Shown: positions 1,147-24,093, counted from the stretch's first letter. The stretch: 64,000 nucleotides of DNA from Bacteroidota bacterium (GCA_030680835.1 JAUXUD010000004.1:32400-96399), one strand, 5' to 3'. The notes: generated by a model from the sequence alone, not told the origin. Numbers and translations: made by a program.

Positions 1147-2079
1147 TTATTTATTATTCAATTCTTCAAGACTTTGCTTTAAATATAAAATCATCATTTC
1201 TTTTCGGTAGGCTCTTGAATAGTAATCATTGTCTACAATTCTTGCTTTTTTAACCGCATCCTGAATGAGTGTTTCTGAGACATCCAGCATGCCTTCAACG
1301 ATTACGGGTTTTGGATCAATACCCCCTATAACTATTTTTATTTTCCCGTTTTGAACCAATGAAACGGCGGTGGTTAACGAGGTAAAATCAACCGCTTCAC
1401 GCGGACGTAATTTTTTGAACACTACTTTAAAGCTGTTGTCAAGAGGTAACATAATGTTTTTGATAATGGCCGTTTTTGAAAGATTTCTGGGGTTGATTCC
1501 ATCTCCGGTATAAATACTTTCCAATGGAATAATTTTTAAACTTTTTTCATCAATGATCTCAAGCTGTGCGTTCATGCTGATCAGTACCGGGGCAGTATCG
1601 GATACAAATTTTGAGAAACAGGCTTTGGTTCCACCGGTTGCGATGCATACTTCCCCATCGCATTTCAGACAGTATCCAACCGACTCACGCCACCAGGCAC
1701 TCTGGTTAAAATAGGTACATCTGTTTTCACATAAAATATTTCCGCCAAGGGTTGCTGTTTTTCTTAGGATGGGTGAAGCAACTTCATTCGCCGCTTTTAA
1801 TAATGCAGGAAATTGTTCTTTAATAATTTCATGTTTTTTAAGATCATCCAGACGAATTAATGATCCTATTTTCAGGAAATGAGTATCAGCATGCACTTCC
1901 TTTAGTATGGCGATACCGGAAAGGTCAATCAAACTTGCTGATTCATCATTTCCCTGAAACCTGTTTACCAGCACATCGGTTCCGCCTGCAATGTATTTAA
2001 AGCTTTGTACATGTTGCTTTGCCAGTGAAAGCGCTGCTTCAATGCTTGTTACCAGATGATATTTATTTTCAGCCATCAT
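1147..2079 (-). CDS. Xanthine dehydrogenase family FAD-binding medium subunit (CoxM/XdhB/HcrB-like) with a Cys-rich inserted loop
   Basis: AGGTDVLV FAD-binding motif. Cysteines at residues 117, 121, 137, 140, 145 and 154 fall within a ~40-residue stretch (LCENRCTYFNQSAWWRESVGYCLKCDGEVCIATGGTKAC) that ordinary CoxM/XdhB subunits lack. Start overlaps the upstream gene by 4 bp. Confidence 0.7.
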   Translation of the reverse strand: MMAENKYHLVTSIEAALSLAKQHVQSFKYIAGGTDVLVNRFQGNDESASLIDLSGIAILKEVHADTHFLKIGSLIRLDDLKKHEIIKEQFPALLKAANEVASPILRKTATLGGNILCENRCTYFNQSAWWRESVGYCLKCDGEVCIATGGTKACFSKFVSDTAPVLISMNAQLEIIDEKSLKIIPLESIYTGDGINPRNLSKTAIIKNIMLPLDNSFKVVFKKLRPREAVDFTSLTTAVSLVQNGKIKIVIGGIDPKPVIVEGMLDVSETLIQDAVKKARIVDNDYYSRAYRKEMMILYLKQSLEELNNK

Positions 2080-8017: not shown

Positions 8018-8038
8018 TTAATCGTTTGAATGGTTCAA

Positions 8039-10039
8039 TTATTCGCCTTTATATGCCACTTTTTGTCCTATAGAGGTTAATCCCAGCAAAGCGTCCTGTG
8101 TTTTGAAAATCTCCGGCAGATAAATCAATTCATCTGCGCAACCTTTTGCGTCTTCAATCAGTTTATCGGCAAAATGCAAAGCGATGGGTGCCTTAAACGA
8201 TAAAGTTTTACAAATGCGGTCTGCCTCTTCTTTTGAAATCATGGTGTCATGAACCTGATGGGTTAGCAATTCATTCAGGGTATGATCTTCAAAGAAATTT
8301 TTCACTGCAAGCCACTTATCACTCAGGATGGTTGCCGTTGGTGAAGGTAATGGTAAATTGCCGTACATGAAGCCGTACATTTCTTCCACGCTTATTACCT
8401 GATCAACCAGCCCTATTTCAAAAGCGTCTTTAGCACTCAACATTTTTCCTGTATGAATGAGGTATTTGCTCAAAGCTTTACCAATTCTTCGCGTGCTTCT
8501 TTGGGTTCCACCCAAACCCGGATAAATTCCAATACCGGTTTCAGGAAACGACATACTGGCACCCGGTAATGCAAGAATCAGATCTGCACATAATGCCAGT
8601 TCCAATCCTCCGCCCAGGGCAAGTCCATTCAATACCGCGATTACCTTTTTACTTGAATGGTCGATCAGTTCAAAAACCTCCTGTCCGAAACGGGTAAAAC
8701 GTTCTATATTTTCTATTGACCGGGCTTTCATGTTTTTTACAAAAAATTTTATATCAGCTCCGGCAACGAATGCTTTTCCTGAACCGCATAAAAAGATTTG
8801 TTCAATTTCCATGTCCATATTTGCCTTGCCGAATTTGTCGAGCAACTGATTCATCACATCTTCATTCAGGGCATTCAGGTCTTCGGGGCGTGACATGGTA
8901 ATGATGGCGTTTCTGCCCGATTTTTCATAAGTAACAAATTCCTGTTTCCAGAACGCCTTACCGATGGACAGAGGAATCAATGTATTGTACTTATGGGCTG
9001 TTTTTTCAATCAGTCTTCTGGTTTCCGGCTCTCCGTATTTGTTCATTAACTCAATCGGACCCGCTTTCCATTTCAAACCAATTCTTGCACCCCTGTTTAT
9101 ATCGGTGGCTGAACAAATTTTTTCGTCAAGTAACTGAGAACAAACTAAAAATTCAATCCCCAGCATTTGATCTGCAATTTCGTTTCTGATTTTTTCATCT
9201 GTTAAAATTTCACCTTCCAGATTCCAGGCTTGATTTATTTCTGTTTGGTCAATCAATTTTTCAGATGTTTTATACAGTTCGCCATAAACCTCAAGCGTTT
9301 TTTGAGAATGGCAGGCAATAGGAACACCGGTGGCATTCATCAGGGCGAAGGGACCCATACCGATTCCAAATTTTTCCATACATACCGCATCGATGGTTGG
9401 TATGTTTCCGATGTTTTCTTCCAGCAAACGGCAGGCTTCATTGAGCCAGGGAACAAAAAACCGGTTCACCACAAAGCCGTATGAATCCTTACAGTAAATG
9501 GCATCCTTCCCGGCTAAGAATGCAAATCTTTTTGCGGCATCAAATACCTGCGGCGAGGTTTTTAAATTGGGAATAATCTCAAGCAGGCGATTTTTAGCAG
9601 CATGATAGAAAAAATGCAGGCCAATAAAACGCTCTCGGTTTGTTACATATTCACTTAACTCATTCACCGAAAAAGATGACGTATTGGTAGCGATAATGCA
9701 GGTATCCGATACAACTTTCGACAGGTGTTTAAACAAGTGTATTTTCGCGTCAAAATCTTCAAAGATTGCCTCTATTACAAGATCGCAAATACTTAAATCT
9801 TCTATGTTAGCAGTGCCTGTAATATTTTTCAACGTATGGTTAACCTGGTCTTGTGTAAATACTTTTTTATCAAATCCTTCCTGTAAAGAATTTTTAATAT
9901 TGTTGATTCCTTTTTCTACAAAATCGATGGCACGATCGGCCAGGATTACTGTGAATCCTTCCTGTGCAAACTTTTGAGCCAGGGCTGAACCCATGGTTCC
10001 CGCTCCAATAATTCCAATAATTTTTATTGATCTGTTCAT
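8039..10039 (-). CDS. Bifunctional 3-hydroxyacyl-CoA dehydrogenase (N-terminal) / enoyl-CoA hydratase (C-terminal)
   Basis: N-terminus IGIIGAGTMGSALAQ (3HCDH NAD-binding). The C-terminal ~300 aa is a crotonase fold (GSGKAFVAGADI...GLALGGGLELAL). 666 aa. Confidence 0.75.
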   Translation of the reverse strand: MNRSIKIIGIIGAGTMGSALAQKFAQEGFTVILADRAIDFVEKGINNIKNSLQEGFDKKVFTQDQVNHTLKNITGTANIEDLSICDLVIEAIFEDFDAKIHLFKHLSKVVSDTCIIATNTSSFSVNELSEYVTNRERFIGLHFFYHAAKNRLLEIIPNLKTSPQVFDAAKRFAFLAGKDAIYCKDSYGFVVNRFFVPWLNEACRLLEENIGNIPTIDAVCMEKFGIGMGPFALMNATGVPIACHSQKTLEVYGELYKTSEKLIDQTEINQAWNLEGEILTDEKIRNEIADQMLGIEFLVCSQLLDEKICSATDINRGARIGLKWKAGPIELMNKYGEPETRRLIEKTAHKYNTLIPLSIGKAFWKQEFVTYEKSGRNAIITMSRPEDLNALNEDVMNQLLDKFGKANMDMEIEQIFLCGSGKAFVAGADIKFFVKNMKARSIENIERFTRFGQEVFELIDHSSKKVIAVLNGLALGGGLELALCADLILALPGASMSFPETGIGIYPGLGGTQRSTRRIGKALSKYLIHTGKMLSAKDAFEIGLVDQVISVEEMYGFMYGNLPLPSPTATILSDKWLAVKNFFEDHTLNELLTHQVHDTMISKEEADRICKTLSFKAPIALHFADKLIEDAKGCADELIYLPEIFKTQDALLGLTSIGQKVAYKGE

Positions 10040-10045
10040 TTTTGA

Positions 10046-10819
10046 TTAATTATTAGTCCACTGTGGTTTTCTTTTTTCCAGAAAGGATTGAATCCCTTCA
10101 TTTGCATCATGGGTTCCCATTAAATTGTTTACATAGAGTTGCTCCAGCTGCGGTAAAAAATTACTGAGGATATGATTGAATTTAATTCTAACGGCTTTAG
10201 TAGCGTACCTCAGTGAAGAAGCACTTTTCGGCAAAATGTTTTGTATGATCCATTCATTTACCCCTTGCTCCAATGCAGTTTTATCTTCATACAAATAATT
10301 GAGCAATCCTATGTTTTTAGCTTCTTCCGCACCGATTGTTTTTCCGGTTATAATTAATTCTTCGGCCCGGGCCAAACCAATTTTTTCGGGAAGCAGGATG
10401 GAAGCAGGCGGTGGAAAAACGCCCAGAATAATTTCGGGCTGACCTAATTTTGCTGTTTGATCGGCAAACATAAAGTCGCACATTAATGCGAGCTCCAGTC
10501 CACCACCCAGGCATTGGCCTGAAATTTTAGCCAGGGTGGGAATGGACAAATCGCGAAGGGTATAAAACAACTGATGAAAGGATCGAAGCATGGCAGCGGC
10601 CAGATCTTTCTGGTGCTCCTCTACGCTGGCTCCAAATGAAAAGTGTTTCCCTGCACCCTCAAAAATAATCAGTTTAAGATTGTTTGCTCCGCTAAAGGAA
10701 TACAATACTTTCTGCATTTCTTCCATCATCAAATGGTCGAGCACATTTCCCTTGCCATCATTTAGTAGAATGTGTGCAACCGATTGTTCGAATAAATAAG
10801 ATACTTGTATTTTTTCCAT
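10046..10819 (-). CDS. Enoyl-CoA hydratase/isomerase family protein (candidate dienoyl-CoA hydratase, Dch/BamR-like)
   Basis: 257 aa crotonase with AGKHFSFGASVEEH, GQCLGGGLELALMCD and FxxPE..LG motifs. Confidence 0.6.
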   Translation of the reverse strand: MEKIQVSYLFEQSVAHILLNDGKGNVLDHLMMEEMQKVLYSFSGANNLKLIIFEGAGKHFSFGASVEEHQKDLAAAMLRSFHQLFYTLRDLSIPTLAKISGQCLGGGLELALMCDFMFADQTAKLGQPEIILGVFPPPASILLPEKIGLARAEELIITGKTIGAEEAKNIGLLNYLYEDKTALEQGVNEWIIQNILPKSASSLRYATKAVRIKFNHILSNFLPQLEQLYVNNLMGTHDANEGIQSFLEKRKPQWTNN

Positions 10820-10821
10820 AA

Positions 10822-11922
10822 TTAAACTTTAGCAGTCTGGTATTGCGGTGAAATTTTATGGTGTAATTCTTCATTCCATTCATGACCTTCGGCCAGCAAC
10901 TGACGTAATAAAATAAAATCAACTTCACGGTTTTCTTTCGGACCTTCATTAAAAGCTTTGAACCCGGCTTTGGCTTCACTCATCATATTCAATGCCAGCC
11001 ATTCGCGGCTGCCTTCTTTATTTTTATCCCAGTGTTCCAGTTTAAATTTACGTACCTCACTAATGGTTTTACTCATGCAATTCGGAAAGGTATGCAGGAT
11101 TTTTGCAATCAAGTTATTTACCGATTTATCAAGCATGCTTAAATCGGTTTCAGCATGTGCAATCATTTCTTTTGCTTTTACAAGTGCCTCTCCGGTTTTC
11201 ATCGTTCCAAATGCAAATCTTCCAAATTCATCGGTTATTTTTTCGGTTTGAACCAAAGGATTTGCAATAAATTTTCCATCTACTTTCAGCACGGGAGCGA
11301 TATCTGTAATTACTCCAAAATAATAAGCCTGATGAGCTGTCCAGGGTTCACATAAGGTTAACGACATCATGGCCCGTTCTACACCAACATAGAGTGGAAG
11401 AAAGTCAGTAGCACCACCAATTGCCGCACTGCCATGCTTCGGACCTGCTTGTCCGAACCGTGCCATGTCACTGGCAATGCTAAAATCGCATGCCATTCCG
11501 ATTTCCTGGCCACCGCCGATTCTCATTCCGTTTACCCTGCAGATAACAGGTTTTTCACACATCAGAATGTTAGAAACCATATCGTTAAACAATCTCATGT
11601 ATTGCGAATATTCCTGAGGATTGCCAGAATAATATTCGGCGTATTCCTTGGTATTCCCACCGGTGCAAAAGGCTTTGTCGCCAACGGCTGTGAGCACTAC
11701 AGCCACAATGCTTCTGTCGTTTGATGCTTCCCTGAAAGCCAGGATGATTTCCTTAATGGCTGCTGTGGTATATGAATTAAATTGTTTGGGATTATTCAAG
11801 ATAATCCATGCATTGAATAATTTATCAACGGGCGTTCCATCCTTATCCAGGCATGGGCGTTTTTCGAAAAGAATCTCTTTGAAATCGATGTCAACAAGAT
11901 TGTGATTTTTTAATTCAGTCAT
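10822..11922 (-). CDS. Long crotonase-family protein with ~100 aa C-terminal extension (candidate ring-opening 6-oxocyclohex-1-ene-1-carbonyl-CoA hydrolase, Oah/BamA-like)
   Basis: 366 aa. Crotonase core (AFCTGGN..., VNGMRIGGGQEIGMACDFSIA) plus a C-terminal extension. The length and architecture match BamA/Oah rather than MenB or BadI (~260-285 aa). Confidence 0.45.
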   Translation of the reverse strand: MTELKNHNLVDIDFKEILFEKRPCLDKDGTPVDKLFNAWIILNNPKQFNSYTTAAIKEIILAFREASNDRSIVAVVLTAVGDKAFCTGGNTKEYAEYYSGNPQEYSQYMRLFNDMVSNILMCEKPVICRVNGMRIGGGQEIGMACDFSIASDMARFGQAGPKHGSAAIGGATDFLPLYVGVERAMMSLTLCEPWTAHQAYYFGVITDIAPVLKVDGKFIANPLVQTEKITDEFGRFAFGTMKTGEALVKAKEMIAHAETDLSMLDKSVNNLIAKILHTFPNCMSKTISEVRKFKLEHWDKNKEGSREWLALNMMSEAKAGFKAFNEGPKENREVDFILLRQLLAEGHEWNEELHHKISPQYQTAKV

Positions 11923-11930
11923 ATGTATAA

Positions 11931-12995
11931 TTATTTAAAGTCGGGTGTTAAAACAGAACGTTTGGTATATTTATGTTCGAGTGTATTATTAAAAACTTCA
12001 TTGATTTGAGACATGGGAAAAGTTTCAACAAACTGACCAATTTTCAGTTTATCATCCGCAACGAGTGCAACCACTTCCGGATATAATTCGGGTTTGCATC
12101 CCCAGGTTCCGATGAGCTTGGCATCAAAAGCCATCAGGTTGCTTAAACGCACTTCAACTTTATCCATAGTAAAACCAACGATAGACAGGGTAGAGGCAAA
12201 AGTTACCAGATTAAATGCGAGCTCCTGACCCGGTTTTGATCCGGATATTTCAAATATTTTCCATCCATATTTTGGGGCTTTCAGTTCTTTTGCAATTTCT
12301 TTTACTTTCTCTTTGATGGTTTTTAAATCAAGACCTTTGGTATTTAATGTCGCATCTACGCCATTCAGTTTGGCAATGGCTAATTTCTCATCACTGATAT
12401 CCAGTGCCAAAACTTTTGCACCAAATATTTTGGCAATTTGTGCCCCGTAAATACCCACGCCGCCTACACCAATTACAATTGCAAAATCTCCTGCCACCAG
12501 TTCCGATTTTTTAACAACCTGGTATGGAGTTGAAATCGCATCAGCGATAACAGAGAGTTGTTCCAATGAATATTTTTCTAAAACTTTATCGGGTACCTCA
12601 CATAAATATTTGGAAGGTACTTTTATATGAGAAGCAAATCCTCCGTCAAAATCATTACCAGGCATCAGTTGATTTCTGCATATATTGCTCCGGTCGCTTT
12701 TGCATAAATCACATTCACCACAAGGCAATACCGCGGGTATAATTACATTTTTTCCGATCCATTTTTCATCCCCATCAACCACGGTTCCGCTTATTTCATG
12801 CCCGAGTGTTAAAGGCAATGCATGTTTGGTTTGAACCCCATGATGCCAGAAACTAATGTCGGTATGACAAACTCCGCAGCCGGCAATTTTTACCAGGGTT
12901 TCACCCTCTTTCAATTCCGGCATATCACTTTCTGATAAAACAAATGGCTTATTTAATTCAGTCATTTGCCATTGGTACATTTTATTTTCTTCCAT
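11931..12995 (-). CDS. Zinc-dependent medium-chain alcohol dehydrogenase family (candidate 6-hydroxycyclohex-1-ene-1-carbonyl-CoA dehydrogenase, Had/BamQ-like)
   Basis: GCGVCHTDISFWHHG...GHEISGTV zinc-ADH signature, a structural-Zn Cys cluster (CGECDLC) and GVGGVG Rossmann motif. 354 aa. Confidence 0.6.
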   Translation of the reverse strand: MEENKMYQWQMTELNKPFVLSESDMPELKEGETLVKIAGCGVCHTDISFWHHGVQTKHALPLTLGHEISGTVVDGDEKWIGKNVIIPAVLPCGECDLCKSDRSNICRNQLMPGNDFDGGFASHIKVPSKYLCEVPDKVLEKYSLEQLSVIADAISTPYQVVKKSELVAGDFAIVIGVGGVGIYGAQIAKIFGAKVLALDISDEKLAIAKLNGVDATLNTKGLDLKTIKEKVKEIAKELKAPKYGWKIFEISGSKPGQELAFNLVTFASTLSIVGFTMDKVEVRLSNLMAFDAKLIGTWGCKPELYPEVVALVADDKLKIGQFVETFPMSQINEVFNNTLEHKYTKRSVLTPDFK

Positions 12996-14261
12996 TTATT
13001 TCATATTTATATTTTCAAATAATATTGCAGTTCCTTGTCCGCCCCCAATGCAGGCAGATGCAATTCCGTATTTAACATTTCTCAGATTCATTTCGCGGAT
13101 CATGGTTAATGAAAGTCTTAAACCGGAAGCTGCCAGCGGATGTCCGATTGCAATGGCTCCTCCATTTACATTTAGTTTTTCTCTATCAAGACCCAGTTCA
13201 ATTTCACAACCGATCAGTTGTGCTGAGAAGGCTTCGTTAATTTCAAACAAGCCGATATCTTCAATGTTTAATCCTGTAAATTCAAGCAGTAATTTAATTG
13301 CAGGCACCGGAGCCAGTCCCATTAATTTAGGGTCAATGCCACAGGTAGCTGCTGCAACAATTTTTGCAATGGGTTTTAAACCTTTTGCCTGAACCGTACT
13401 TAAATCGGCCACCACTGCAGCCCCGGAACCATCAACAATACCACTGCAATTGCCCGCAGTTAAAACACCTACTTCCGAAAATACGGTTTGTAATTTAGCC
13501 AGTGATTCAAGGCTGGTATCGCGTATTTGTTCATCAACCCTAAAATCTTTAACAGCTCCCGGCAAGCGAACTTTTCTTGATTTCAATCCTTCTCTTTCGA
13601 AAACTGTAGAATTAATAGGTGTAATTTCATCTTTAAAAATTTCATTTTTTTGCGCATTGAATGCTCTTTGAAATGAAAGATAAGCGAATGCATCACATTG
13701 CTCGCGTGTAATCTGATGTTTTTTGGCAACGTTTTCAGCAGTGAATCCCATGGGATAACCTGCTGCGGTATCATCCAATGCCTCCCATAACATATCTTTA
13801 AACACAGGTCTTCCCAAAGGGTATCCCATGCGGTTTCCAAAACTTACCGTAGGTGCCAGCGACATGTTTTCGGTACCACAACATAAAACCAGTGCGGCTT
13901 TTTTTAAGGTAATTTGTTCTGCTGCCGTAATCAGGGTTTCAAAACCGGAGGCACAAATACGCTGAACCATTAATGAGGGAACTGTAATGGGCAGGCCGGC
14001 ATACAGTGCGATATGTCTCGGTAGAAAATAGGCGTCGCCGGAGGCCTGACCAATATTGGCTATAATGGCCTGATCAATATCATCCGGTTCAACACCCGAT
14101 TTAAGCAATGCAGCTTTTGAAGCGAATATCCCCAGATCAGTCGGTGATACATTAGCAAGGGTTCCGCAAAATTTTCCAAAAGGAGTGCGGATGCCATTCA
14201 CTAAAAAAATATCATCAAATGAGATGGCGATACCTTTTTCTTTATTGTGATAAGATTTCAT
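12996..14261 (-). CDS. Acetyl-CoA C-acyltransferase / beta-ketothiolase
   Basis: 421 aa. Thiolase active-site regions (VQRICASGFETL, NVNGGAIAIGHPLAASG, GIASACIGGGQG). Confidence 0.8.
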   Translation of the reverse strand: MKSYHNKEKGIAISFDDIFLVNGIRTPFGKFCGTLANVSPTDLGIFASKAALLKSGVEPDDIDQAIIANIGQASGDAYFLPRHIALYAGLPITVPSLMVQRICASGFETLITAAEQITLKKAALVLCCGTENMSLAPTVSFGNRMGYPLGRPVFKDMLWEALDDTAAGYPMGFTAENVAKKHQITREQCDAFAYLSFQRAFNAQKNEIFKDEITPINSTVFEREGLKSRKVRLPGAVKDFRVDEQIRDTSLESLAKLQTVFSEVGVLTAGNCSGIVDGSGAAVVADLSTVQAKGLKPIAKIVAAATCGIDPKLMGLAPVPAIKLLLEFTGLNIEDIGLFEINEAFSAQLIGCEIELGLDREKLNVNGGAIAIGHPLAASGLRLSLTMIREMNLRNVKYGIASACIGGGQGTAILFENINMK

Positions 14262-14263
14262 AA

Positions 14264-16111
14264 TTAATTGGATATAGATTCTGAAGTAACTAATTCTTTA
14301 ATGTTGTTTACAAGCCAGTTTTCTTTAGCCAATGTGGCGGCACCATAAGCAACCACAAACTGGGGATTGTCAACGGGATTGATTTCTTTATTAAATTTCT
14401 CACTTAAAATATTACTGATGTATGGATGATGCGCAACCACGCCCCCTATCAGGTAGGTGGGGATATTCGGAAACAGTTTCATTTTAGCAACTTTATTGGC
14501 AATGGAAATATAAATGCCTCTTGCGATATCCTGTTTCAGCATCCCATCAAATACCCATGTCATAATTTCTGTTTTTGCAAACACCGTACAAAAACTATTG
14601 AGCTCTTTATTGTATGAAGAGTGTGCAGCGAGACTGCTCATTTCTTCGATATTGATTTCGGCACGTTCCGAAATTTCCTCAAGGAAAGAGCCCGTTCCGG
14701 CGGCACATTTATCATTCATATAGAAATTGGCAACAAGGTTTTCATTGTTGGTATGAATGATCTTGATGTCCTCACCCCCGATATCAATAATGTTTTTTTC
14801 ACCGGGATAAAACGCTGCCACACCTGAGGCTGCGCAGTTTATTTCTGTTTTAATAATATCGGTTTCGTTAAAATGTTTTCTACCGTAACCGGTTGCACAA
14901 CTGTGTTTAATTAAAAATGCAGCATAGATTGACTTAAGCACATTTTTCATGGCATGCCTGTCTTTATTCATGGTAGGCAGTATATACCTGAACACCGGAG
15001 TGCCGTTCCCGTCAATAACAACAAATTTTGTAAATGCTGATCCCAGATCGATACCGAGGAACCCATTATGCTCTTTATAATAAATGGATGAACGGTTTTT
15101 TTCAAGCAAACCTTTATTGATAATTTTTTTATTCAGTTCATCTTCTACCCCCGGAAACCGGTTCAGTACATTTTTATTGGTCATGGCTTTCACCATATTT
15201 GTAAATGCCAGGTTAAGCGAAGTTTTTACGTAATGTTTTTTCCCGTATTCAACTATTTTCCCATTAAAATAATCTATTTCGGTTGGTCTGTTATTGATCA
15301 GGTCAACAGATAATGAAGGGAAGTGGTCACCTCCTTTTTTCAGGTATTGCATGCATTTTCTTACAAAATCATCCGAAAAGCGAATTTTCTCTTTTTCGGC
15401 AACATCAATGCCTTCGTTAATGATTTGTTCAATCAGTTCTACGGTGTCATCATCAGCCATTGCTTCAGCCATGGTTAGCCTGCCAACTCCGCATAGAGCA
15501 CTCAGTGAGGCATTCAAAATGGTTTTTTCCCAGATCCCTTTAACCAGTTCAAACGAATCCAGTTTATTTGTTTTGAAACCAATGCTGTTTAAGGTATCGG
15601 CCAATAGTTGCGCTTCTTTGGTTCTGTTGTCATCAATTGAACCTACATAATTTGGCGGAGTTACGAAAGATACGCGCACAATATTCGGGGCGCGCATGTT
15701 ACCTGCAAAATTAATAATCATGCGCAATGTTTTTGATTCACCAAACGTTGCGCTGATTAAACTTTCAACATCTATTCCGTTTTGTGCAGAAACCAAAGTA
15801 AGCTTATCTGTATTAATTTGTTCCGCTTCTTTAACAGCTCCAATTGTCTGATAGGATTTTAAAGAGAAGATGAGATAATCAAGATCCTGTGCTCTCATAT
15901 CAACAATCGAATCATATACATTGTCGAAACGGGTGGTTGATACCAAGGCGTTCTCAAGAATAATTCCGTCTTCTCTTACTTTTTTGAGTTTAAAATCATC
16001 TTTGTCGCAGATTGAAACATCGCAACCGGCCTCTTTAAATTTAACAGCGAGAATCATCCCCACAGGACCTAAACCTACAATTCCAACCTTAATTTTTTTT
16101 GTTTTTTCCAT
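14264..16111 (-). CDS. Fusion protein: ketopantoate reductase-like (ApbA/PanE family NAD(P)H oxidoreductase) N-terminal half plus BadF/BadG/BcrA/BcrD-type ATPase (CoA-substrate-specific enzyme activase) C-terminal half
   Basis: N-terminus KIKVGIVGLGPVGMILAVKF Rossmann motif plus an ApbA C-domain. The C-terminal ~270 aa is GIDLGSAFTKFVVID...NDKCAAGTGSFLE (ASKHA ATPase with the cluster-ligand Cys pair). 615 aa. Confidence 0.65.
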   Translation of the reverse strand: MEKTKKIKVGIVGLGPVGMILAVKFKEAGCDVSICDKDDFKLKKVREDGIILENALVSTTRFDNVYDSIVDMRAQDLDYLIFSLKSYQTIGAVKEAEQINTDKLTLVSAQNGIDVESLISATFGESKTLRMIINFAGNMRAPNIVRVSFVTPPNYVGSIDDNRTKEAQLLADTLNSIGFKTNKLDSFELVKGIWEKTILNASLSALCGVGRLTMAEAMADDDTVELIEQIINEGIDVAEKEKIRFSDDFVRKCMQYLKKGGDHFPSLSVDLINNRPTEIDYFNGKIVEYGKKHYVKTSLNLAFTNMVKAMTNKNVLNRFPGVEDELNKKIINKGLLEKNRSSIYYKEHNGFLGIDLGSAFTKFVVIDGNGTPVFRYILPTMNKDRHAMKNVLKSIYAAFLIKHSCATGYGRKHFNETDIIKTEINCAASGVAAFYPGEKNIIDIGGEDIKIIHTNNENLVANFYMNDKCAAGTGSFLEEISERAEINIEEMSSLAAHSSYNKELNSFCTVFAKTEIMTWVFDGMLKQDIARGIYISIANKVAKMKLFPNIPTYLIGGVVAHHPYISNILSEKFNKEINPVDNPQFVVAYGAATLAKENWLVNNIKELVTSESISN

Positions 16112-16160
16112 CAGTTTAATTTTTTGTGTTGAATATCCGATATCCTATTGCTTAAGTATT

Positions 16161-16625
16161 CTACAATGCCTGGATATAATAAATTTCCTCCTCTTTTGAT
16201 TCAAAACCGGTATTGATATTCTGAATGGCCTCCCTGATTATTTTACTCATATTTTCAGAAGAAGGATTTGTATCAATGGAGCTCAGATCGGTATTAATGA
16301 TAATGGAGGCGTTAATTTTTTCTGATGCCGGGTCCAGCTTTGTGTTTACAATTTTTAAGCATCCGGTGAGGCATCTTCCCAGTTCATCCAGGTTACGCGG
16401 ACAAAAACAACCTTCATCCGGAGATAATTTATATTCAGGATTATCCAATAATTTTTTATCCGGAAAAATCAGCGCAATATGATTTTCCCTGCCAGCATCA
16501 CTTAAGGAAACAAACTTTACATAGTGACAGGTATTCTTAATTAATTTTTCAATTTCCAGGGAACTAACTTTTTCTCCGGTTGAAAGTTTAAATACCTGGC
16601 TAAACTGTAAATGATGCATGTTCAT
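16161..16625 (-). CDS. Small protein resembling the C-terminal subdomain of AMP-forming long-chain acyl-CoA ligases; possible gene remnant
   Basis: FKLSTGEKVSSLEIEKLIKN...HIALIFPD resembles the FKLxxGEYxxxExIE...VVPD block at the C-terminus of ACSL/FAA-type ligases. Only 154 aa, with no adenylation domain upstream. Confidence 0.35.
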   Translation of the reverse strand: MNMHHLQFSQVFKLSTGEKVSSLEIEKLIKNTCHYVKFVSLSDAGRENHIALIFPDKKLLDNPEYKLSPDEGCFCPRNLDELGRCLTGCLKIVNTKLDPASEKINASIIINTDLSSIDTNPSSENMSKIIREAIQNINTGFESKEEEIYYIQAL

Positions 16626-16653
16626 AATTACCTGATTTTAGAGGTGAGAAATA

Positions 16654-17874
16654 CTAATGACTATAAACTCCTGAGCTTTCTATTTGCTCGATAAATGTCT
16701 CAATTTTGGTGATACTTTGTCCTTCCGAATAAAAACGCAAATCACATAAATCGCCTTCAATCACCATGGTTGGAATACCCAGGGTTTCCTGGATACGCTG
16801 CGGCATGCCAAACCTCGAATTTGAATTATTTGCACAGGTTTTTGCATCATGAAAAATCATGCCATCGATGCGAAAATCATGCACCAGTTGTGTGAGTATG
16901 GATTGTTTGGCTTCTTCACTTCTGTTAATAAATATTTCGGTATATGCCTGAGCCGATGATTCAAAAGGATTTCTTTCATCGAAAGCATCAAACACCCAGC
17001 TATTACAGTAGGTTGAAGCCACAACAGCTGAGTTGTTATTGATAAATAAATCCGACAATGATCTTAATTTCCCCCAGATGGGCATACCATCCCAGTATAT
17101 TCTTGATTTTTCTTTTTCTAAAAATCCGATTCCTTTTTCTACATTTTCAGTTAATTCTTTTAGTAATGTGATGTAATAGTCTTTGGCAATTTGGGTGCCT
17201 CTTAAAACCACAATCGGACCCATATGTATGGTTGCATCGAAAAAGCTTATTGGAGCCGGACTTTTCGTTGCGGTCCACAAAACCTGTTTCCATAAATCGG
17301 TTGCTTCCTTGCTTAATTTAAGTACTTCCCTGAAACGGTCAATGTCAAATTTTAAGCCGCTCACTTTCTCGCATAATGGAATCAGTGCTTTAAATTGTGC
17401 GGATACATCTTCAATTTCTTCTTTGGTTACTTCGGTAACATGCCGTGGCGGGTTAATTCCAAAAACAGGGCAATTTAATTCTCTTGCAAAATAGCTGAAC
17501 CAATCCTGTACTTCACGGCATTGGTTAGTATTGTAAACAATAATATCGGGTTTAGGCGGACCATTTAATCCATAATGTTCTTTTAAGGGAGTTTGACCGG
17601 TCAGGTATGAGCCGATATCAGCAGTTAAATACGAACAGATATCATTCGAATAACCCAGAATTGCAGATTCAGGAATCAAGTCGTTGGCAGTTCGGGTAGC
17701 TCCCAGTAAAGCTCCATGATTTTCGGGGAAATGTACTTCAAACCCAAATGAACGCAAGAGTTCAGCCGGACCCACACTGGTGCACCAGGCTATTTTTTTT
17801 GAAGGTTCTTTCATACCCAGGAAATAATTTCCCATTATTTCCTTCATTAATTTACTTGTTTGAATTTTATACAT
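16654..17874 (-). CDS. 2-hydroxyacyl-CoA dehydratase / benzoyl-CoA reductase subunit-like protein (HgdB/BcrB/BadD/YjiM family), unpaired
   Basis: 406 aa. N-terminal block IAWCTSVGPAELLRSFGFEVHFPENH... and C-terminal Cys positions are typical of the family. There is no partner A-type subunit adjacent. Confidence 0.6.
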   Translation of the reverse strand: MYKIQTSKLMKEIMGNYFLGMKEPSKKIAWCTSVGPAELLRSFGFEVHFPENHGALLGATRTANDLIPESAILGYSNDICSYLTADIGSYLTGQTPLKEHYGLNGPPKPDIIVYNTNQCREVQDWFSYFARELNCPVFGINPPRHVTEVTKEEIEDVSAQFKALIPLCEKVSGLKFDIDRFREVLKLSKEATDLWKQVLWTATKSPAPISFFDATIHMGPIVVLRGTQIAKDYYITLLKELTENVEKGIGFLEKEKSRIYWDGMPIWGKLRSLSDLFINNNSAVVASTYCNSWVFDAFDERNPFESSAQAYTEIFINRSEEAKQSILTQLVHDFRIDGMIFHDAKTCANNSNSRFGMPQRIQETLGIPTMVIEGDLCDLRFYSEGQSITKIETFIEQIESSGVYSH

Positions 17875-17905
17875 ATTCCGTCATTTATAATTTTTATAAA
17901 ATCAA

Positions 17906-20035
17906 CTATATTTTTATCCTTGCATCCACGGCAAAAGCGCCATCTTCAAATGCCATCACCGGATTTAAATCCATTTCCTTTATTTGAGGAAAATCATTCA
18001 CCAGTTGAGATATGCGAAGTATCATTTCAATAACACTGTGTTTATCTAGCGCCGCTTCCCCTCTTGCGCCATCTAATAATTTTGCAGCTTTTATTGAAGA
18101 TAACATTTCGTTTGCTTCAACCCGCGTTACCGGAGATAATTTGAAAACCACATCTTTTAATACTTCAATATAAATTCCTCCCATACCAAACATTACAAGC
18201 GGTTCCAGATCTTTTTGAGCACTTACTCCAATAACAAGTTCCTTACCACCGGGAAGAAATTTTTGAACCAAAAACCGGAGGTCCTCCTCTATAAAATCTT
18301 CCTTCATTTTTTCAACGGCATACAAAACTTCATTGTCGTTTTTCAGATTTATGGCTACCCCGCCCAAATCGCTTTTATGCACAAGAGATTTCGATTCAAC
18401 TTTTACAACAACGGGATATCCAATTTCTTTCGCAGCTTTTACAACATCTGCCATAGAGTGGGCCAAACGCCAATCGGCAATGGGAATTCCATAAGCTGAA
18501 AGTAAGGTATATACTTGTTCGCTGCTAAGAAATTCTCCGGTAGATTTTACATTATTTAAAATGGAATCGGCTTTTACTTTATCTATATCATTAAAATGTT
18601 TGGGTTCACCAATATGCCGGTTTTGAACCAAATGGTACCTGTATAATGCGCCAAGCGCTTTGGCAGCAGTGGTAGGGAAGCTGTAACAAGGTACACCGCC
18701 ATCTTTCAGGATTTTGGCAGTCTCCTGAAAACGTTCCAGACTCAGGTTGGTCATGAAATTACAAACGATGGGTTTTTTGTGTTGTTGATTTACTTCAACA
18801 ATACTTCTTGCAACCTCATTGGTGTCGGTAAACGGAGCCGTAACAAAATTGATAAAAACCGAGTCAATCTGTTCTTCATTCATCATCACATCCAGCGCAC
18901 TTCTGAAATGAATTCCGCCTCCGGTTGCAACTACATCAACAGGATTTCCAATGCTTGCTTCGGGCAATAATGTTTGTTGTAAGGTTTGTATTGCTTTTTC
19001 AGAAAGAGCCGGAATCTGCATTCCTGCATGAACCAGTTCATCGGTTGCAATTACAGCAGGTCCGCCTGTATTGGTGATGATGCCCACACGGTTTCCCTTA
19101 GGGATGGGTTGTGTTGAAAAAGCTTTGGCAGCCTGACACATTTCTTCTTCATTGGTGAAAGAAAGGATCCCTGTTTTCTCAAAAATTAATTCAGTTGCAA
19201 TATCAACACCAGCAAGAGAACCTGTATGGGAAGCTGCTGCTTTAGCGCCTTCAGCAGTCCTGCCCGATTTCATGGCAAGTATTGGCTTTTTGCGTGCAAC
19301 CACTTTGGCCACTTTCATAAATTCTCCGGGATCATGAAATCCTTCGGTATAAAGTATAATGGCTTTGGTTGCCTCATCGTTACCATAATAATTTAATACC
19401 TCCGAAATAGAAATATCACATGCATTTCCATTTGAAGCATAGTAACGCATTCCAATTTCCAGGTCGAATAAACTTTGCATGATAAAGGCACCTACACCTC
19501 CACTTAAAGCTACAATTGAGATGGCACCAGGCTCCGGAAAAGTAAATGTAAAATCACAGTATGCTTTATAATCCGGATCGGTATTGATGATACCCTGACA
19601 GTTTGGACCAAATACCCGGATTCCATATTCTTTTGCCTTGTTGAGAAAAGCAGTTTGCAATGCAATGCCTTCTTCCCCCATTTCATTAAATCCGGCTGAA
19701 TTAATGATTACTGATTTAATTCCTTTTTTGCCACAATCTTCAATAATCTGAGGAACAAATTTTGAAGGAATAATGATATGTGCCAAATCAATATCATCAG
19801 GCACATCAAAAATAGTTTGATAGGCCTTGATATCCCTTATGCTGGGTTCTTTAGGATTGATGGGATAAATTTTCCCGGTATAACCATAATGTACCAGGTT
19901 TTTAATAATTACATTTCCGATGGATAATTCTTTTGAGGATGCACCAATTATAGCAATCGATTTTGGCTTAAATAAAGTATCCAGTTCGTGAGAAATGTCA
20001 CTTTCAATCAATACTGATTCTTCCTTATAATTCAT
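17906..20035 (-). CDS. Acyl-CoA synthetase (NDP/ADP-forming), fused alpha+beta domains (CoA-binding, CoA-ligase, ATP-grasp)
   Basis: 709 aa. N-terminal CoA-binding Rossmann region (SIAIIGASSKELSIGNVIIKNL), a succinyl-CoA-synthetase-like flavodoxin domain and a C-terminal ATP-grasp domain. Confidence 0.75.
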   Translation of the reverse strand: MNYKEESVLIESDISHELDTLFKPKSIAIIGASSKELSIGNVIIKNLVHYGYTGKIYPINPKEPSIRDIKAYQTIFDVPDDIDLAHIIIPSKFVPQIIEDCGKKGIKSVIINSAGFNEMGEEGIALQTAFLNKAKEYGIRVFGPNCQGIINTDPDYKAYCDFTFTFPEPGAISIVALSGGVGAFIMQSLFDLEIGMRYYASNGNACDISISEVLNYYGNDEATKAIILYTEGFHDPGEFMKVAKVVARKKPILAMKSGRTAEGAKAAASHTGSLAGVDIATELIFEKTGILSFTNEEEMCQAAKAFSTQPIPKGNRVGIITNTGGPAVIATDELVHAGMQIPALSEKAIQTLQQTLLPEASIGNPVDVVATGGGIHFRSALDVMMNEEQIDSVFINFVTAPFTDTNEVARSIVEVNQQHKKPIVCNFMTNLSLERFQETAKILKDGGVPCYSFPTTAAKALGALYRYHLVQNRHIGEPKHFNDIDKVKADSILNNVKSTGEFLSSEQVYTLLSAYGIPIADWRLAHSMADVVKAAKEIGYPVVVKVESKSLVHKSDLGGVAINLKNDNEVLYAVEKMKEDFIEEDLRFLVQKFLPGGKELVIGVSAQKDLEPLVMFGMGGIYIEVLKDVVFKLSPVTRVEANEMLSSIKAAKLLDGARGEAALDKHSVIEMILRISQLVNDFPQIKEMDLNPVMAFEDGAFAVDARIKI

Positions 20036-20064
20036 AACTCATTTTTTTATTCATATTTTTTTTT

Positions 20065-20152
20065 AAACACATAGGCACATAGATTCACATAGGTTTCACA
20101 TAGTAAAATACCCTATGTGAAACCTATGTTTTCCTATTGTGCCTATGTGTTT
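20065..20152. repeat. 88-bp imperfect palindrome built from CACATAG / CTATGTG units, flanked by ~15 bp direct repeats (aatt(t)cataactcat)
   Basis: aaacacataggcacatag..tcacataggtttcacatag|taaaatac|cctatgtgaaacctatgtt..ctattgtgcctatgtgttt. The direct repeats are at 20028..20042 and 20153..20168. Confidence 0.7.
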
Positions 20153-20184
20153 AATTTCATAACTCATACCTCATAACATAATAT

Positions 20185-21021: not shown

Positions 21022-21103
21022 AATTTTTTAATTCTTACTTCTTAATTCTATTTCATATTGTACATTGTTCTCGACTTAGCTCGGACTGACATGCGGTATA
21101 TCT

Positions 21104-21166
21104 TACATTGTACATTGTACATCGTAATTCGTACATCGTACATCGTAAATCGTACATTGTACATCA
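21104..21166. repeat. Tandem array of 9 copies of the 7-bp unit TACATYG (TACATTG/TACATCG/TAAATCG/TAATTCG), with an additional solo copy at 21061
   Basis: Read directly: tacattg tacattg tacatcg taattcg tacatcg tacatcg taaatcg tacattg tacatca. The array runs into the bcrA-like stop codon. Confidence 0.8.
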
Positions 21167-22579: not shown

Positions 22580-22646
22580 TTCTTTAAATAATTTCGTTTA
22601 CATGAATTCAATGTTTTCAATTAAATATTGTGTAAATACAATGTGA

Positions 22647-22665
22647 GGGCAGATGCAATCTGCCC
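22647..22665. promoter_or_regulatory. Intercistronic GC-rich stem-loop (gggcagat-gca-atctgccc) between the bcrB-like and bcrA-like genes
   Basis: 8-bp perfect stem with a 3-nt loop, in an AT-rich 119-bp spacer. Confidence 0.5.
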
Positions 22666-22698
22666 CTACCAGTTGTATCATATAAATTAGTTTTCATG

Positions 22699-24003: not shown

Positions 24004-24047
24004 AATAATATTTTTATCATTTTAAACTTTGCTTTCATGTCAACATA

Positions 24048-24067: not shown

Positions 24068-24093
24068 CTACAATATTCCCATTTCCTTCTTTA

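Follow-up and report, generated by a model that had tools for sequence, protein, structure and literature searches.

A single reading frame in a Bacteroidota genome joins a PanE/ApbA-type 2-oxoacid reductase, through a linker of about 35 aa, to an HgdC/HadI-type [4Fe-4S] ATPase (activase), and this protein, FUS, is a genuine gene fusion and not an artefact, with an architecture that is widely conserved and not rare. The gene was recognised by its ORF and domain searches at 14264..16111 (minus strand, as for every feature given below) of the window, the 64,000-nucleotide stretch of DNA that was analysed. Together with HGDx, a lone HGD-D subunit, and a CoA ligase, FUS may form a self-contained module that takes a 2-oxoacid by way of an (R)-2-hydroxyacid and its CoA ester to an enoyl-CoA, probably carrying arylpyruvates through cinnamoyl-CoA to benzoyl-CoA. 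This reading is the one that gives every conserved gene a role, and we favour it tentatively, at a little short of an even chance.

FUS runs from ATG to stop as one uninterrupted frame of 615 aa, and NCBI already holds an identical 615-aa protein from a 119,940-bp contig of a Bacteroidota MAG. In Pfam, ApbA covers residues 9-149 (E 2.5e-19), ApbA_C 191-310 (E 2.1e-28) and BcrAD_BadFG 352-595 (E 6.2e-38), while the NCBIfam models TIGR00745 (apbA_panE, at subfamily level) and TIGR00241 (acyl-CoA dehydratase activase) score 156.8 and 174.3, with cut-offs of 141.35 and 125.4. Both halves are intact and under constraint. In the ApbA/PanE half (aa 1-315; 15167..16111; alignments and PDB matches), the GxGxxG motif is found as G13, G15 and G18, and N111, K196, N200, S266, D270 and E278 do not vary even in relatives of only 39% identity. 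We take K196, E278, N111, N200 and S266 to be the counterparts of E. coli PanE K176, E256, N98, N180 and S244. PF02558 and PF08546 are both matched, the catalytic Lys and Glu are kept, and so are the Asn and Ser that bind substrate, in line with a ketopantoate-reductase fold, and the AF2 model has a pLDDT of ~90 over residues 10-200. The earlier note had raised the possibility that the ApbA catalytic residues were lacking; they are intact and invariant.

The best PDB matches of this half are 2ew2 (80 bits), 8wl1 and 3wfi, of which 2ew2 and 3wfi are Enterococcus PanE-type proteins and 3wfi is presumably D-mandelate dehydrogenase; E. coli PanE is absent from the matches at E<=0.001. These matches point to the PanE-family D-2-hydroxyacid dehydrogenases, such as Enterococcus D-mandelate dehydrogenase and Lactococcus PanE/D-2-hydroxyisocaproate dehydrogenase, with which the half has in common an H-[FY]-P-S-[LM]...D...TEID[YF]xNG stretch and a K-x-x-x-N motif, although the similarity is only 67-80 bits and the ApbA half, unlike them, is fused to an activase. 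The PanE family is known to include D-2-hydroxyisocaproate and D-mandelate dehydrogenases (bioRxiv 10.1101/2024.01.05.573888).

The linker (aa 316-349; 15065..15166; alignment) is kept across the Bacteroidota and missing in the Marinimicrobia protein P0122. Since AF2 gives a pLDDT <50 at residues 279-322 and a pTM of 0.50, no fixed orientation is expected between the two domains. The activase half (aa 350-600; 14312..15064; TIGR00241 and PDB matches) carries the DLGS phosphate-1 (355-358) and GGEDIK motifs and the cluster cysteines C469 (NDKCAAGTG) and C508 (NSFCTVFAK), both invariant down to 39% identity, so that the complete activase with a CAAGTG motif described earlier is indeed there. Its best PDB matches are HadI 4eht (134 bits), DCCP-R 7yyl_E and HgdC 1hux, and its predicted properties are those of an ASKHA-fold activator in which each monomer supplies two cysteines to a [4Fe-4S] cluster that bridges the dimer.

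A tblastn search seeded on ApbA-domain patterns returned 345 relatives of FUS, and the best 80 of the 345, which were kept, are all full-length fusions (80/80). The best 120 database relatives are 66-100% identical with both domain sets present. Genome loci with FUS occur in Bacteroidota, Ignavibacteria and Chlorobiota MAGs, and protein searches extend the range to Calditrichota and Marinimicrobia, which answers the question of taxonomic spread put by the earlier note and upholds its single PanE-activase ORF, with no stop or frameshift between the halves. Its view of the architecture as novel holds to the extent that our literature search found no published description of a PanE/ApbA-activase fusion, but with 345 relatives, routinely named in the databases, the protein is not rare.

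The usual name of these relatives is '2-dehydropantoate 2-reductase', which, with the TIGR00745 score, would suit an ordinary ketopantoate reductase of pantothenate/CoA synthesis, fused by accident or for co-regulation; alternatively, the ORF could be a frameshift or assembly artefact, as a small shift at the junction separates the fused from the split state in Marinimicrobia. The equivalog PanE models all score far below their cut-offs (e.g., NF005091, 108 vs 252), the fusion and conserved linker recur in those 80 best genome matches from many independent assemblies, with one Marinimicrobia sequence found on 98 contigs, and at the loci examined the gene has thiolase on one side and HGDx on the other, never a pantothenate gene context. 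Conservation thus largely refutes either version, and we consider them highly improbable. In the Marinimicrobia contigs L094, L095, L104 and L125, the ApbA and activase parts are separate, overlapping genes. These split versions are Rosetta-stone evidence for the module, and because they exist, the fusion itself is dispensable. In a divergent clade (P0123, P0391), FUS is present with no HGD-D or BCR gene nearby.

HGDx is a 406-aa lone alpha-type HGD-D subunit (16654..17874; Pfam, NCBIfam, PDB and AF2) that matches PF06050 (HGD-D) at E 9e-60 and has HadB alpha as its best PDB match (171 bits). The two align end to end and share three cluster cysteines as well as the glutamate of the PE motif; the canonical cysteines C80, C119 and C347 align with those of HadB and with BcrB C91, C126 and C369. 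HGDx is 28% identical to the BcrB of the window (hhalign probability 100%) and gave no significant match to BcrC. The AF2 model (pTM 0.84) has a TM of 0.86 to HadB (3o3m_A), 0.84 to MbdO and 0.84-0.87 to the catalytic alpha subunits overall, against 0.75 to DCCP. It scores 221 on the HadB equivalog (cut-off 750), 161.6 on BcrB TIGR02260 (cut-off 486.55), 80.9 on TIGR03191 (cut-off 448.6) and 54 bits on the double-cubane model NF040772 (cut-off 350), and thus stays below the equivalog cut-offs that mark a class I benzoyl-CoA reductase catalytic subunit. With an HGD-D fold, three cluster cysteines and a predicted open iron site, HGDx is, judged from its sequence, of the catalytic alpha type (HadB, HgdA, BcrB) and neither HgdB (beta) nor YjiM (double-cubane), and the HgdB/YjiM-like label first given to it has to be abandoned. 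No beta partner for HGDx was found within 10 kb at ~130 loci, where the only beta-type gene is the BcrC of the reductase. Across 76 orthologues, three extra cysteines are invariant (C31, C290 and C377, giving the series 31/80/119/290/347/377), although in Marinimicrobia a valine replaces C377, and a second site with all three cysteines is therefore not universal.

The extra cysteines raise the possibility that HGDx and the activase half are instead an ATP-dependent two-component reductase, DCCP/DCCP-R-like or a minimal BCR, whose substrate would be a different CoA ester, or some small molecule, from the aromatic pathway, with the ApbA half reducing a keto group of the substrate or product. By AF2 model comparison, the invariant C31 and C290 occupy the same strand ends as the distal ligands of the [8Fe-9S] cluster in DCCP and BzdN (PMC11971306; PMC7317905). 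DCCP and DCCP-R (Carboxydothermus; E. coli YjiM/YjiL) are likewise homodimers from two genes, one of HGD-D fold and one an activase-type ATPase (PMC7317905), and this two-component layout resembles the present one, as do the cysteines at the ends of the first N-terminal-domain strand and of a C-terminal-domain strand, which compare with C31 and C290. The HGDx model also fits the BCR catalytic subunits about as well as it fits HadB, and the module is nearly always linked to an operon for a ring reductase. However, the 7-Cys motif of DCCP (CX19CX18-19CX29CX166-170CX32-34CX32C) is missing from HGDx, where only the C1-like and C5-like positions are common, the double-cubane cut-off is not reached, and the fold is nearer to the catalytic alpha subunits than to DCCP. 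The HadB model gives HGDx a better score than the BcrB model does (221 vs 162 bits), the activase is of the single domain type and nearest to the dehydratase activator HadI, no candidate substrate accounts both for the conservation of the ligase and for the 2-oxoacid-type residues of the ApbA half, and the operon is already equipped with a full BCR, often together with a 4-hydroxybenzoyl-CoA reductase. Such a reductase is unlikely in our estimation.

On one side of the trio of ligase, HGDx and FUS lies a four-subunit benzoyl-CoA reductase, and on the other lie Dch/Had/Oah and beta-oxidation genes. The Thauera-type class I reductase genes (NCBIfam) are bcrD (20185-21021), bcrA (21164-22579), bcrB (22699-24003) and bcrC (24094-25257); TIGR02260 scores 700 (cut-off 487) and TIGR02263 460 (cut-off 421), and BcrA and BcrD are best NCBIfam matches, yet below their own cut-offs. 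The downstream operon genes (8039..14261; Pfam/NCBIfam) encode thiolase (12996-14261), Had (11931-12995), Oah (10822-11922), Dch (10046-10819) and a 3-hydroxyacyl-CoA dehydrogenase/enoyl-CoA hydratase fusion, HadhEch (8039-10039), with TIGR03201 at 467 (cut-off 339), TIGR03200 at 584 (cut-off 464) and gaps of 0-8 bp between genes from FUS through Dch. A 4-hydroxybenzoyl-CoA-reductase-like molybdenum enzyme (1147..4847; NCBIfam), consisting of a fused gamma+alpha (2076-4847) and a beta subunit (1147-2079), scores 803 on TIGR03194 (below the cut-off of 995) and 202 on TIGR03195; such an enzyme adjoins the operon in 20 of 134 loci. HGDx is directly upstream of FUS in 106/110 loci. In the window, the two belong to the same cluster with a single dehydratase subunit, as the earlier note had it, but are not directly adjacent, for a 154-aa ORF (16161-16625) lies between them. 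Translational coupling of the trio is seen in L001 and L092, where stop and start codons overlap or abut, and in Marinimicrobia the same trio adjoins a divergent four-subunit BCR-like enzyme.

With all four BCR genes present in 65/71 loci and the module genes directly downstream of bcrCBAD in the same operon, HGDx and FUS might be accessories of that reductase, either as an alternative substrate-binding subunit with BcrC or as an electron-input or repair device, the ligase then being a benzoate-CoA ligase. HGDx is a paralogue of BcrB, and of BzdO and MbdO in the other class I BCRs (BcrCBAD, BzdNOPQ, MbdONPQ), all of the same superfamily, and BcrC is the sole beta-type HGD-D protein nearby. On the other hand, class I BCRs are stable complexes of two different HGD-D and two different ATPase subunits, whereas the module has a single activase domain and brings its own ATPase. 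The proteobacterial Thauera-type BCR is known to work with BcrCBAD and ferredoxin alone. An ApbA fold implies hydride transfer, and no Pfam flavin or one-electron cofactor family scored above cut-off in the ApbA half. Identity profiles correlate at r=0.82 for HGDx-FUS, 0.82 for FUS-thiolase and 0.87 for FUS-HadhEch, compared with 0.51-0.58 with the Bcr subunits, which reach 0.93-0.97 among themselves. In L010, L012, L014 and L016, HGDx is 84-86% identical and the Bcr subunits 61-72%, and between Bacteroidota and Marinimicrobia, HGDx is 54-57% identical and the BcrC-like proteins only ~33%. HGDx, FUS and thiolase/HadhEch vary as a block apart from BcrCBAD. An accessory role is accordingly improbable, and the electron-input device for the adjacent BCR proposed in the earlier note, a reductase that has two ATPase subunits of its own, finds no backing.

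The neighbouring ADP-forming CoA synthetase was correctly recognised from the start, as a 709-aa ORF at 17906..20035 (Pfam/NCBIfam; PDB 8wzu, 4-hydroxybutyrate-CoA ligase, 482 bits). A ligase is upstream of HGDx in 89/92 loci, and in most related loci the slot is filled by an AMP-forming ligase of 585 aa (58 loci, against 31 with an ADP-forming one). This displacement of one ligase type by the other in the same slot suggests that the module includes CoA activation. With 59 bits to 2v7b, compared with ~100 bits to ligases of the oxalate, feruloyl and fatty-acid types, the ligase is by these scores not benzoate-CoA-ligase-like. The ORF between HGDx and FUS, r154 (16161..16625; alignment and a weak Pfam PF23562 match), is a free-standing 154-aa AMP-binding C-terminal subdomain that matches residues 423-557 of the 585-aa ligase of related loci at 40% identity, with five invariant cysteines (C33; C73-x-C75-x9-C85-x3-C89), and it is found in 30/31 ADP-forming-ligase loci and 0/58 AMP-forming-ligase loci. 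The loci carry no CoA-transferase gene and have the AMP- or ADP-forming ligase in its slot. The classical loci L135-L142 have both alpha and beta genes, and in L135-L139, ligase, activase, alpha and beta genes share one operon, so that a ligase standing in for a CoA-transferase has precedent.

The Had system of Clostridioides difficile (LdhA, HadA, HadI, HadBC) and the related Fld phenyllactate (FldH, FldA, FldI, FldBC) and Hgd 2-hydroxyglutarate (HgdH, GctAB, HgdC, HgdAB) systems follow the same logical chain that we infer for the module, from a 2-oxoacid reductase through CoA activation to a ketyl-radical dehydratase with an ATP-dependent [4Fe-4S] activator. The closest likeness is to the Had system of (R)-2-hydroxyisocaproyl-CoA dehydratase, with HGDx resembling HadB and the activase half nearest HadI. 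Unlike these systems, the module has no beta subunit and an alpha-type subunit with 2-3 extra invariant cysteines; its reductase, joined to the activator in one protein, comes from the PanE/ApbA family instead of the D-2HADH family; a ligase takes the place of the CoA-transferase; and the genes are carried by facultative FCB bacteria as part of an operon for aromatic-ring reduction, rather than by an amino-acid-fermenting Firmicute. The compact reductase/activator/dehydratase module envisaged earlier gains from the best PDB matches of its parts, which lie in Had or D-2-hydroxyacid-dehydrogenase systems, but physical fusion is no necessary part of it and its function stays a prediction.

From the observed gene structure, domains, residues, synteny and conservation, the catalytic steps, oligomeric state, cofactor content and substrate of the 2-oxoacid to enoyl-CoA module can be proposed as follows. 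The ApbA half would reduce the free 2-oxoacid to the (R)-2-hydroxyacid with NAD(P)H, and the ligase (ADP-forming in the window, AMP-forming in most relatives) would make the CoA thioester. HGDx, probably a homodimer with the usual three-Cys substrate cluster and a second Fe-S site from the extra cysteines, would dehydrate the thioester by ketyl-radical chemistry. The radical cycle would be started by one ATP-energised electron from the activase half, acting as a homodimer with a bridging [4Fe-4S] cluster. Because the module lies in a benzoyl-CoA operon and co-evolves with thiolase and hydratase/dehydrogenase, the most likely substrates are phenylpyruvate (from Phe) and 4-hydroxyphenylpyruvate (from Tyr), giving cinnamoyl-CoA or 4-coumaroyl-CoA; beta-oxidation of these would then yield acetyl-CoA together with benzoyl-CoA or 4-hydroxybenzoyl-CoA. 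A HisC-family aminotransferase (TIGR01141 above cut-off) is found within the operon in two independent arrangements.

Several points weigh against the proposed scheme. The module has no beta-type gene of its own, and to our knowledge all characterised 2-hydroxyacyl-CoA dehydratases are alpha/beta heterodimers. The extra cysteines of HGDx resemble those of double-cubane proteins, which are so far known among reductases (BzdN, DCCP) and not among dehydratases, and the ligase could be the lineage's plain benzoate/4-hydroxybenzoate ligase, leaving HGDx and FUS with no assigned substrate. The aminotransferase is seen in just 9/134 loci, and the valine at C377 in Marinimicrobia and the P0123/P0391 clade also count on this side. 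If the dehydratase reading is true, the module may constitute an undescribed route for phenylalanine and tyrosine into the anaerobic benzoyl-CoA pathway of Bacteroidota and their relatives.

The fusion is encoded by an uninterrupted reading frame of 615 codons (14264-16111, -), in which Pfam places ApbA (residues 9-149), ApbA_C (residues 191-310) and BcrAD_BadFG (residues 352-595) domains with E-values from 2.5e-19 to 6.2e-38. The protein also passes the curated NCBIfam cut-offs for TIGR00745 (apbA_panE; 156.8 against 141.35) and TIGR00241 (acyl-CoA dehydratase activase; 174.3 against 125.4), and the single frame and these matches bear out the coordinates and domain calls of the earlier note. 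Every gene from 594 to 25257 lies on the minus strand. The bcrD, bcrA, bcrB and bcrC genes of a Thauera-type class I benzoyl-CoA reductase (BCR; 20185-25257, -) are followed in transcription order by a 709-aa ADP-forming acyl-CoA synthetase (17906-20035, -), the 406-aa HGD-D protein HGDx (16654-17874, -), a 154-aa ORF termed r154 (16161-16625, -) and the fusion; r154 thus stands between two genes that had been described as direct neighbours. On the 3' side of the fusion, with gaps of 0-8 bp, come thiolase, Had, Oah and Dch genes, and then a 3-hydroxyacyl-CoA dehydrogenase/enoyl-CoA hydratase fusion. A promoter and terminator scan of 7900-26400 gave counts no higher than the shuffled expectation, and the remaining genes of the window (metal efflux, haem synthesis, T9SS-tagged proteins) are unrelated to the operon, although the T9SS tags assign the contig to Bacteroidota.

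An identical fusion protein is already present in NCBI. Its 120 best database relatives, mostly from Bacteroidota MAGs and usually named '2-dehydropantoate 2-reductase', are 598-634 aa long and 66-100% identical, and all have both domain sets. A genome scan with one genome per species gave 345 relatives, and the best 80, which were kept, are all full-length fusions of 61-84% identity, nearly all from MAGs of Chitinophagales, Flavobacteriales, Saprospiraceae, Cytophagales, Sphingobacteriales, Ignavibacteria and Chlorobiota. Remoter fused relatives occur in Calditrichota and, at 45% identity, in Marinimicrobia, one sequence of the latter being present on 98 contigs. Clustering at 50% identity puts the full-length fusions into about four clusters, the others being stand-alone PanE-like proteins, stand-alone activases and large activase-dehydratase fusions. 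Down to 39% identity the ApbA half keeps GxGxxG, N111, K196, N200, S266, D270 and E278, the last six of which we take to correspond to N98, K176, N180, S244, D248 and E256 of E. coli PanE, and the activase half keeps DLGS, GGEDIK and the cluster cysteines C469 and C508. The fusion proposed in the earlier note is therefore genuine: since the frame is unbroken and the family alignment keeps the ApbA residues, there is neither a stop codon at the junction nor a loss of the ApbA catalytic residues, and a frameshift or assembly artefact as its origin was rejected in view of the conservation across relatives. An ordinary PanE, as the database name has it, or an artefact is a very improbable account of the protein. 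The AF2 model has two confident domains without a fixed relative orientation (pTM 0.50), with residues 279-322 below a pLDDT of 50. A divergent clade, 36-39% identical to the window protein (L085:1164-2993, and L087 and L088:1165-3003), lies near ribosomal protein genes, with NifU and a class V aminotransferase on the opposite strand; no HGD-D, ligase or BCR gene was found near the fusion in these three loci, and the neighbours of the P0123/P0391 members of this clade were uninformative.

The best PDB matches of the activase half are HadI (134 bits), the double-cubane cluster protein (DCCP) ATPase DCCP-R and HgdC, the BCR ATPase subunits being less close. For the ApbA half the nearest matches are PanE-type proteins of Enterococcus, 2ew2 (E. 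faecalis) and 3wfi, the latter presumably the D-mandelate dehydrogenase of E. faecium, and E. coli PanE is absent from its PDB matches at E<=0.001. D-2-hydroxyacid dehydrogenases are documented among PanE-family members, and D corresponds to R, the configuration needed by ketyl-radical dehydratases.

The strongest evidence on the module of CoA ligase, HGDx and fusion is its gene context, for which the ORFs of 134 fusion-bearing loci were scored against a panel of window proteins. Of the 110 loci that extend far enough upstream, 106 have HGDx immediately before the fusion, HGDx is itself preceded by a CoA ligase in 89 of 92, and the complete set of four BCR genes is found in 65 of 71; the apparent absence of HGDx from one locus, L098, was rejected as an ORF-overlap effect of the filter. 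Two mutually unrelated enzymes fill the ligase slot: 58 loci have a 585-aa AMP-forming one, and 31, the window among them, have the 709-aa ADP-forming one. Lying between bcrD and the HGD-D gene, this slot has seen non-orthologous displacement of the operon CoA ligase. The ADP-forming enzyme (17906-20035, -) is 4-hydroxybutyrate-CoA-ligase-like (482 bits to 8wzu). The AMP-forming one is FadD-like. Against oxalate, feruloyl and fatty-acid ligases it scores about 100 bits and against 2v7b 59 bits, and by these scores it is not benzoate-CoA-ligase-like. In AMP-ligase loci the ligase, HGDx and fusion genes abut or overlap (L001: 7039-8796, 8783-10000 and 10001-11872). A HisC-family aminotransferase, above the TIGR01141 cut-off, occurs inside the operon in two arrangements: downstream of the fusion (after it in Maribacter loci, close by in a Parvicellaceae locus) or, in Marinimicrobia, at the start of the operon. 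Aromatic-amino-acid aminotransferases belong to this family. Gut and fermentation metagenome contigs (L135-L139) carry classical operons with an AMP-forming ligase, an activase and alpha and beta subunits, and a ligase can thus stand in for the CoA-transferase in ordinary heterodimeric systems.

The r154 ORF is present in 30 of the 31 loci where the ADP-forming enzyme replaces the AMP-forming ligase and in 0 of the 58 others, which implies that this Cys-rich domain has a function outlasting the catalytic role of the ligase. It is a conserved ORF of 147-173 aa, a free-standing copy of the C-terminal subdomain of AMP-forming ligases (PF23562) that begins directly after the hinge ('RKDRIFKLS') and lacks the A10-like lysine stretch 'TPSMKVAPK'. 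Its five invariant cysteines, C33 and C73xC75x9C85x3C89 (CHYV; GCFCPR-x7-G-x-C-x3-C), form a motif that recurs in full-length ligases, Marinimicrobia among their sources. The domain possibly binds metal, or docks to HGDx or the fusion.

In Marinimicrobia the trio comes after an enzyme that shares about 33% identity with BcrC and BcrB and has ATPase subunits of about 268 aa. Its assignment as Bzd-type was dropped, and because it scores below the NCBIfam cut-offs for the Bcr and Bzd models alike, it is called here a divergent four-subunit BCR-like enzyme. Marine contigs (L089-L095, L104 and L109) carry the complete benzoyl-CoA-type operon, which consists of the HisC-like aminotransferase, the BCR-like enzyme, the trio, Had, Oah, Dch, an SDR, a thiolase and a 4-hydroxybenzoyl-CoA-reductase-like enzyme. 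In four loci ApbA and activase are encoded by two distinct ORFs that overlap (L094:2704-4459, L095:8994-10749, L104:10001-11711 and L125:81-1798), with '...EEKNNG*' overlapping 'MDDYFLGIDLGS' at the junction; in the closely related contigs L089-L093 and L109 they are fused, and some Marinimicrobia fusions have no linker. The two states reflect either repeated fusion and fission or single-base assembly differences at the junction. Read from sequence, this looks like a Rosetta-stone case, in which the functional link of ApbA and activase would be old and their covalent joining optional.

Other neighbours of the window operon deserve mention. A 4-hydroxybenzoyl-CoA-reductase-like molybdenum enzyme (1147-4847, -; with its accompanying genes 1147-7146, -) has its [2Fe-2S] gamma and Mo alpha subunits fused in 923 aa and a separate beta subunit, its alpha part scoring 803 bits against TIGR03194, below the cut-off of 995. 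Beside it are an SDR and XdhC-like and MobA-like maturation genes. The 262-aa MobA-like ORF (6358-7146, -) is listed from a TTG codon and shares 170 nt with the 3' end of a haem A synthase-like gene (6977-8017, -); the true start of the MobA-like gene is probably an internal Met ('MDVKNKYSAIILMAGKS'). Hemerythrin-domain proteins recur in or beside BCR operons (594-1139, -, in the window; L001:14025-14438; and L073), which may reflect oxygen sensing or protection; the hosts of these hemerythrin-flanked, oxygen-sensitive operons also encode haem A synthase for aerobic respiration.

The earlier note had taken HGDx for an HgdB/YjiM-like protein, but PDB matches, NCBIfam and AF2 superposition all place it with the alpha-type, HadB/BcrB-like subunits. 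It aligns end to end with HadB (171 bits), which in 2-hydroxyisocaproyl-CoA dehydratase is the catalytic alpha subunit, and more weakly with MbdO and BzdO; identity to the window BcrB is 28%, and a comparison with BcrC gave no significant match. Its AF2 model (pLDDT 79.7, pTM 0.84) superposes best on HadB (TM 0.86-0.87), followed by MbdO (0.84), BzdO, DCCP (0.75) and beta-type subunits (0.70-0.74). C80, C119 and C347 align with HadB cysteines and, by hhalign, with C91, C126 and C369 of BcrB, and are the predicted canonical three ligands of the substrate-binding [4Fe-4S] cluster, which BzdO ligates through Cys95, Cys128 and Cys380 (PMC11971306). A Cys-x-x-His motif, considered as diagnostic of BCR-type catalytic subunits, is absent from the window BcrB and was dropped.

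Three further cysteines, C31, C290 and C377, are invariant in 76 HGDx orthologues. These positions are Ser, Pro and Ala in classical alpha subunits, those of L135-L139 included, and none is Cys in BcrB; the Marinimicrobia orthologues retain C31, C290 and C135 and have valine for C377. In the AF2 model each such cysteine lies 0-4 residues past the C-terminal end of a beta strand, where the cluster cavity of the HGD-D fold is sited. C31 closes the first N-terminal-domain strand, immediately ahead of the P-x-E helix, as do the first cysteine of DCCP ('fCvyvPEE') and Cys36 of BzdN ('mCtytPEE'), and C290 comes after a C-terminal-domain strand, as the 'eetC'/'ddqC' cysteine does in DCCP and BzdN. 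Exclusion of the canonical BzdO triad assigns these two DCCP and BzdN cysteines to the distal cubane of the [8Fe-9S] cluster. The equivalence is drawn from motif and secondary-structure position, because hhalign aligned HGDx with the BcrC family only weakly and in part (probability 30%). We infer that HGDx may carry a second Fe-S site within one polypeptide, which would account for the absence of a beta subunit; a homodimeric HGD-D protein with a homodimeric activase has a precedent in DCCP and DCCP-R. The same double-cubane-like cysteines favour HGDx and the activase being an ATP-dependent reductase, an alternative that we consider rather unlikely; HGDx is not a member of DCCP. A homologue search with HGDx returned close orthologues only, and the six-Cys pattern is known here from this operon context.

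HGDx and the fusion might also be accessory or alternative subunits of the BCR, beside whose genes they lie. HGDx is not a BcrB or BzdO equivalog, and proteobacterial BcrCBAD requires ferredoxin alone. When per-gene identities to the window counterparts were correlated across the loci of the genome scan, a crude measure, the four Bcr subunits correlated at 0.93-0.97 and a second block emerged with HGDx, the fusion, the thiolase and the hydratase/dehydrogenase (HGDx-fusion 0.82, fusion-thiolase 0.82, fusion-hydratase/dehydrogenase 0.87). Against the Bcr subunits HGDx and the fusion reached only 0.51-0.58 and the thiolase 0.34-0.38. Four loci (L010, L012, L014 and L016) have HGDx 84-86% and thiolase 83-85% identical to those of the window, with Bcr subunits at 61-72%. 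Crude as it is, this two-block pattern speaks against HGDx and the fusion being reductase subunits that co-evolve with the others; they travel with the beta-oxidation genes, and a role as BCR subunits is improbable. Compared with L005, L006 and L009, the same four loci appear as mosaic operons (ligase-HGDx-fusion-thiolase block 75-86%, bcrCBAD 61-72% identical), which suggests that the reductase and module blocks have been exchanged by recombination.

In the chemistry that we favour, the ApbA half would use NAD(P)H to reduce a 2-oxoacid, giving the (R)-2-hydroxyacid, the ligase would convert this to its CoA thioester, and HGDx would dehydrate the thioester by ketyl-radical chemistry after receiving one ATP-driven electron from the activase half; the enoyl-CoA product would then be hydrated, oxidised and cleaved by the hydratase/dehydrogenase and thiolase of the operon. 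This sequence is redox-neutral and gives every conserved gene a role, and its likelihood falls a little short of even. The module would work like the Had, Fld and Hgd systems, but their defining beta subunit and CoA-transferase are absent. The operon setting, the aminotransferase and the frequent presence of a 4-hydroxybenzoyl-CoA reductase nearby make phenylpyruvate and 4-hydroxyphenylpyruvate the best candidate substrates, which would yield cinnamoyl-CoA or coumaroyl-CoA and then benzoyl-CoA or 4-hydroxybenzoyl-CoA plus acetyl-CoA, although aromatic substrates are a tentative assignment. Equally speculative is the full picture, in which HGDx would be the first ketyl-radical dehydratase made of a single kind of subunit, as a homodimer, with a substrate [4Fe-4S] cluster and a second, double-cubane-like site on the same chain, served by a reductase-activase fusion and a ligase with a Cys-rich domain, in an oxygen-independent route from Phe/Tyr through arylpyruvate, aryllactyl-CoA and cinnamoyl-/coumaroyl-CoA to benzoyl-CoA. 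Conversion by phenyllactyl-CoA dehydratase to cinnamoyl-CoA and on to benzoyl-CoA has only been hypothesised, in a sulfate reducer (PMC13416013, 2026), and a full-text literature search turned up no account of the fusion or of a lone HGD-D subunit linked to a BCR.

The module would fit best among the archerase-dependent radical enzymes, as a system common in FCB-group MAGs and consistently mis-named. The archerase architectures known to us, in which ATP-driven electrons serve ketyl-radical chemistry, are few, namely alpha/beta dehydratases, four-subunit benzoyl-CoA reductases and homodimeric double-cubane proteins. A fourth would be this module, built on a single alpha-type subunit that has additional cluster ligands and whose activator would be fused to or translationally coupled with the enzyme supplying the dehydratase precursor. 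It is kept in the benzoyl-CoA operons of abundant environmental FCB-group bacteria of lakes, groundwater, sludge and ocean oxygen-minimum zones, and we know of no cultured model or biochemical study for this operon context. If the proposal is true, the apparently mis-annotated '2-dehydropantoate 2-reductase' of these operons would be explained, and Bacteroidota, Ignavibacteria and their relatives, and marine Marinimicrobia, would possess an unrecognised route that takes aromatic amino acids to benzoyl-CoA anaerobically, shorter and carbon-conserving, bypassing phenylacetyl-CoA alpha-oxidation.
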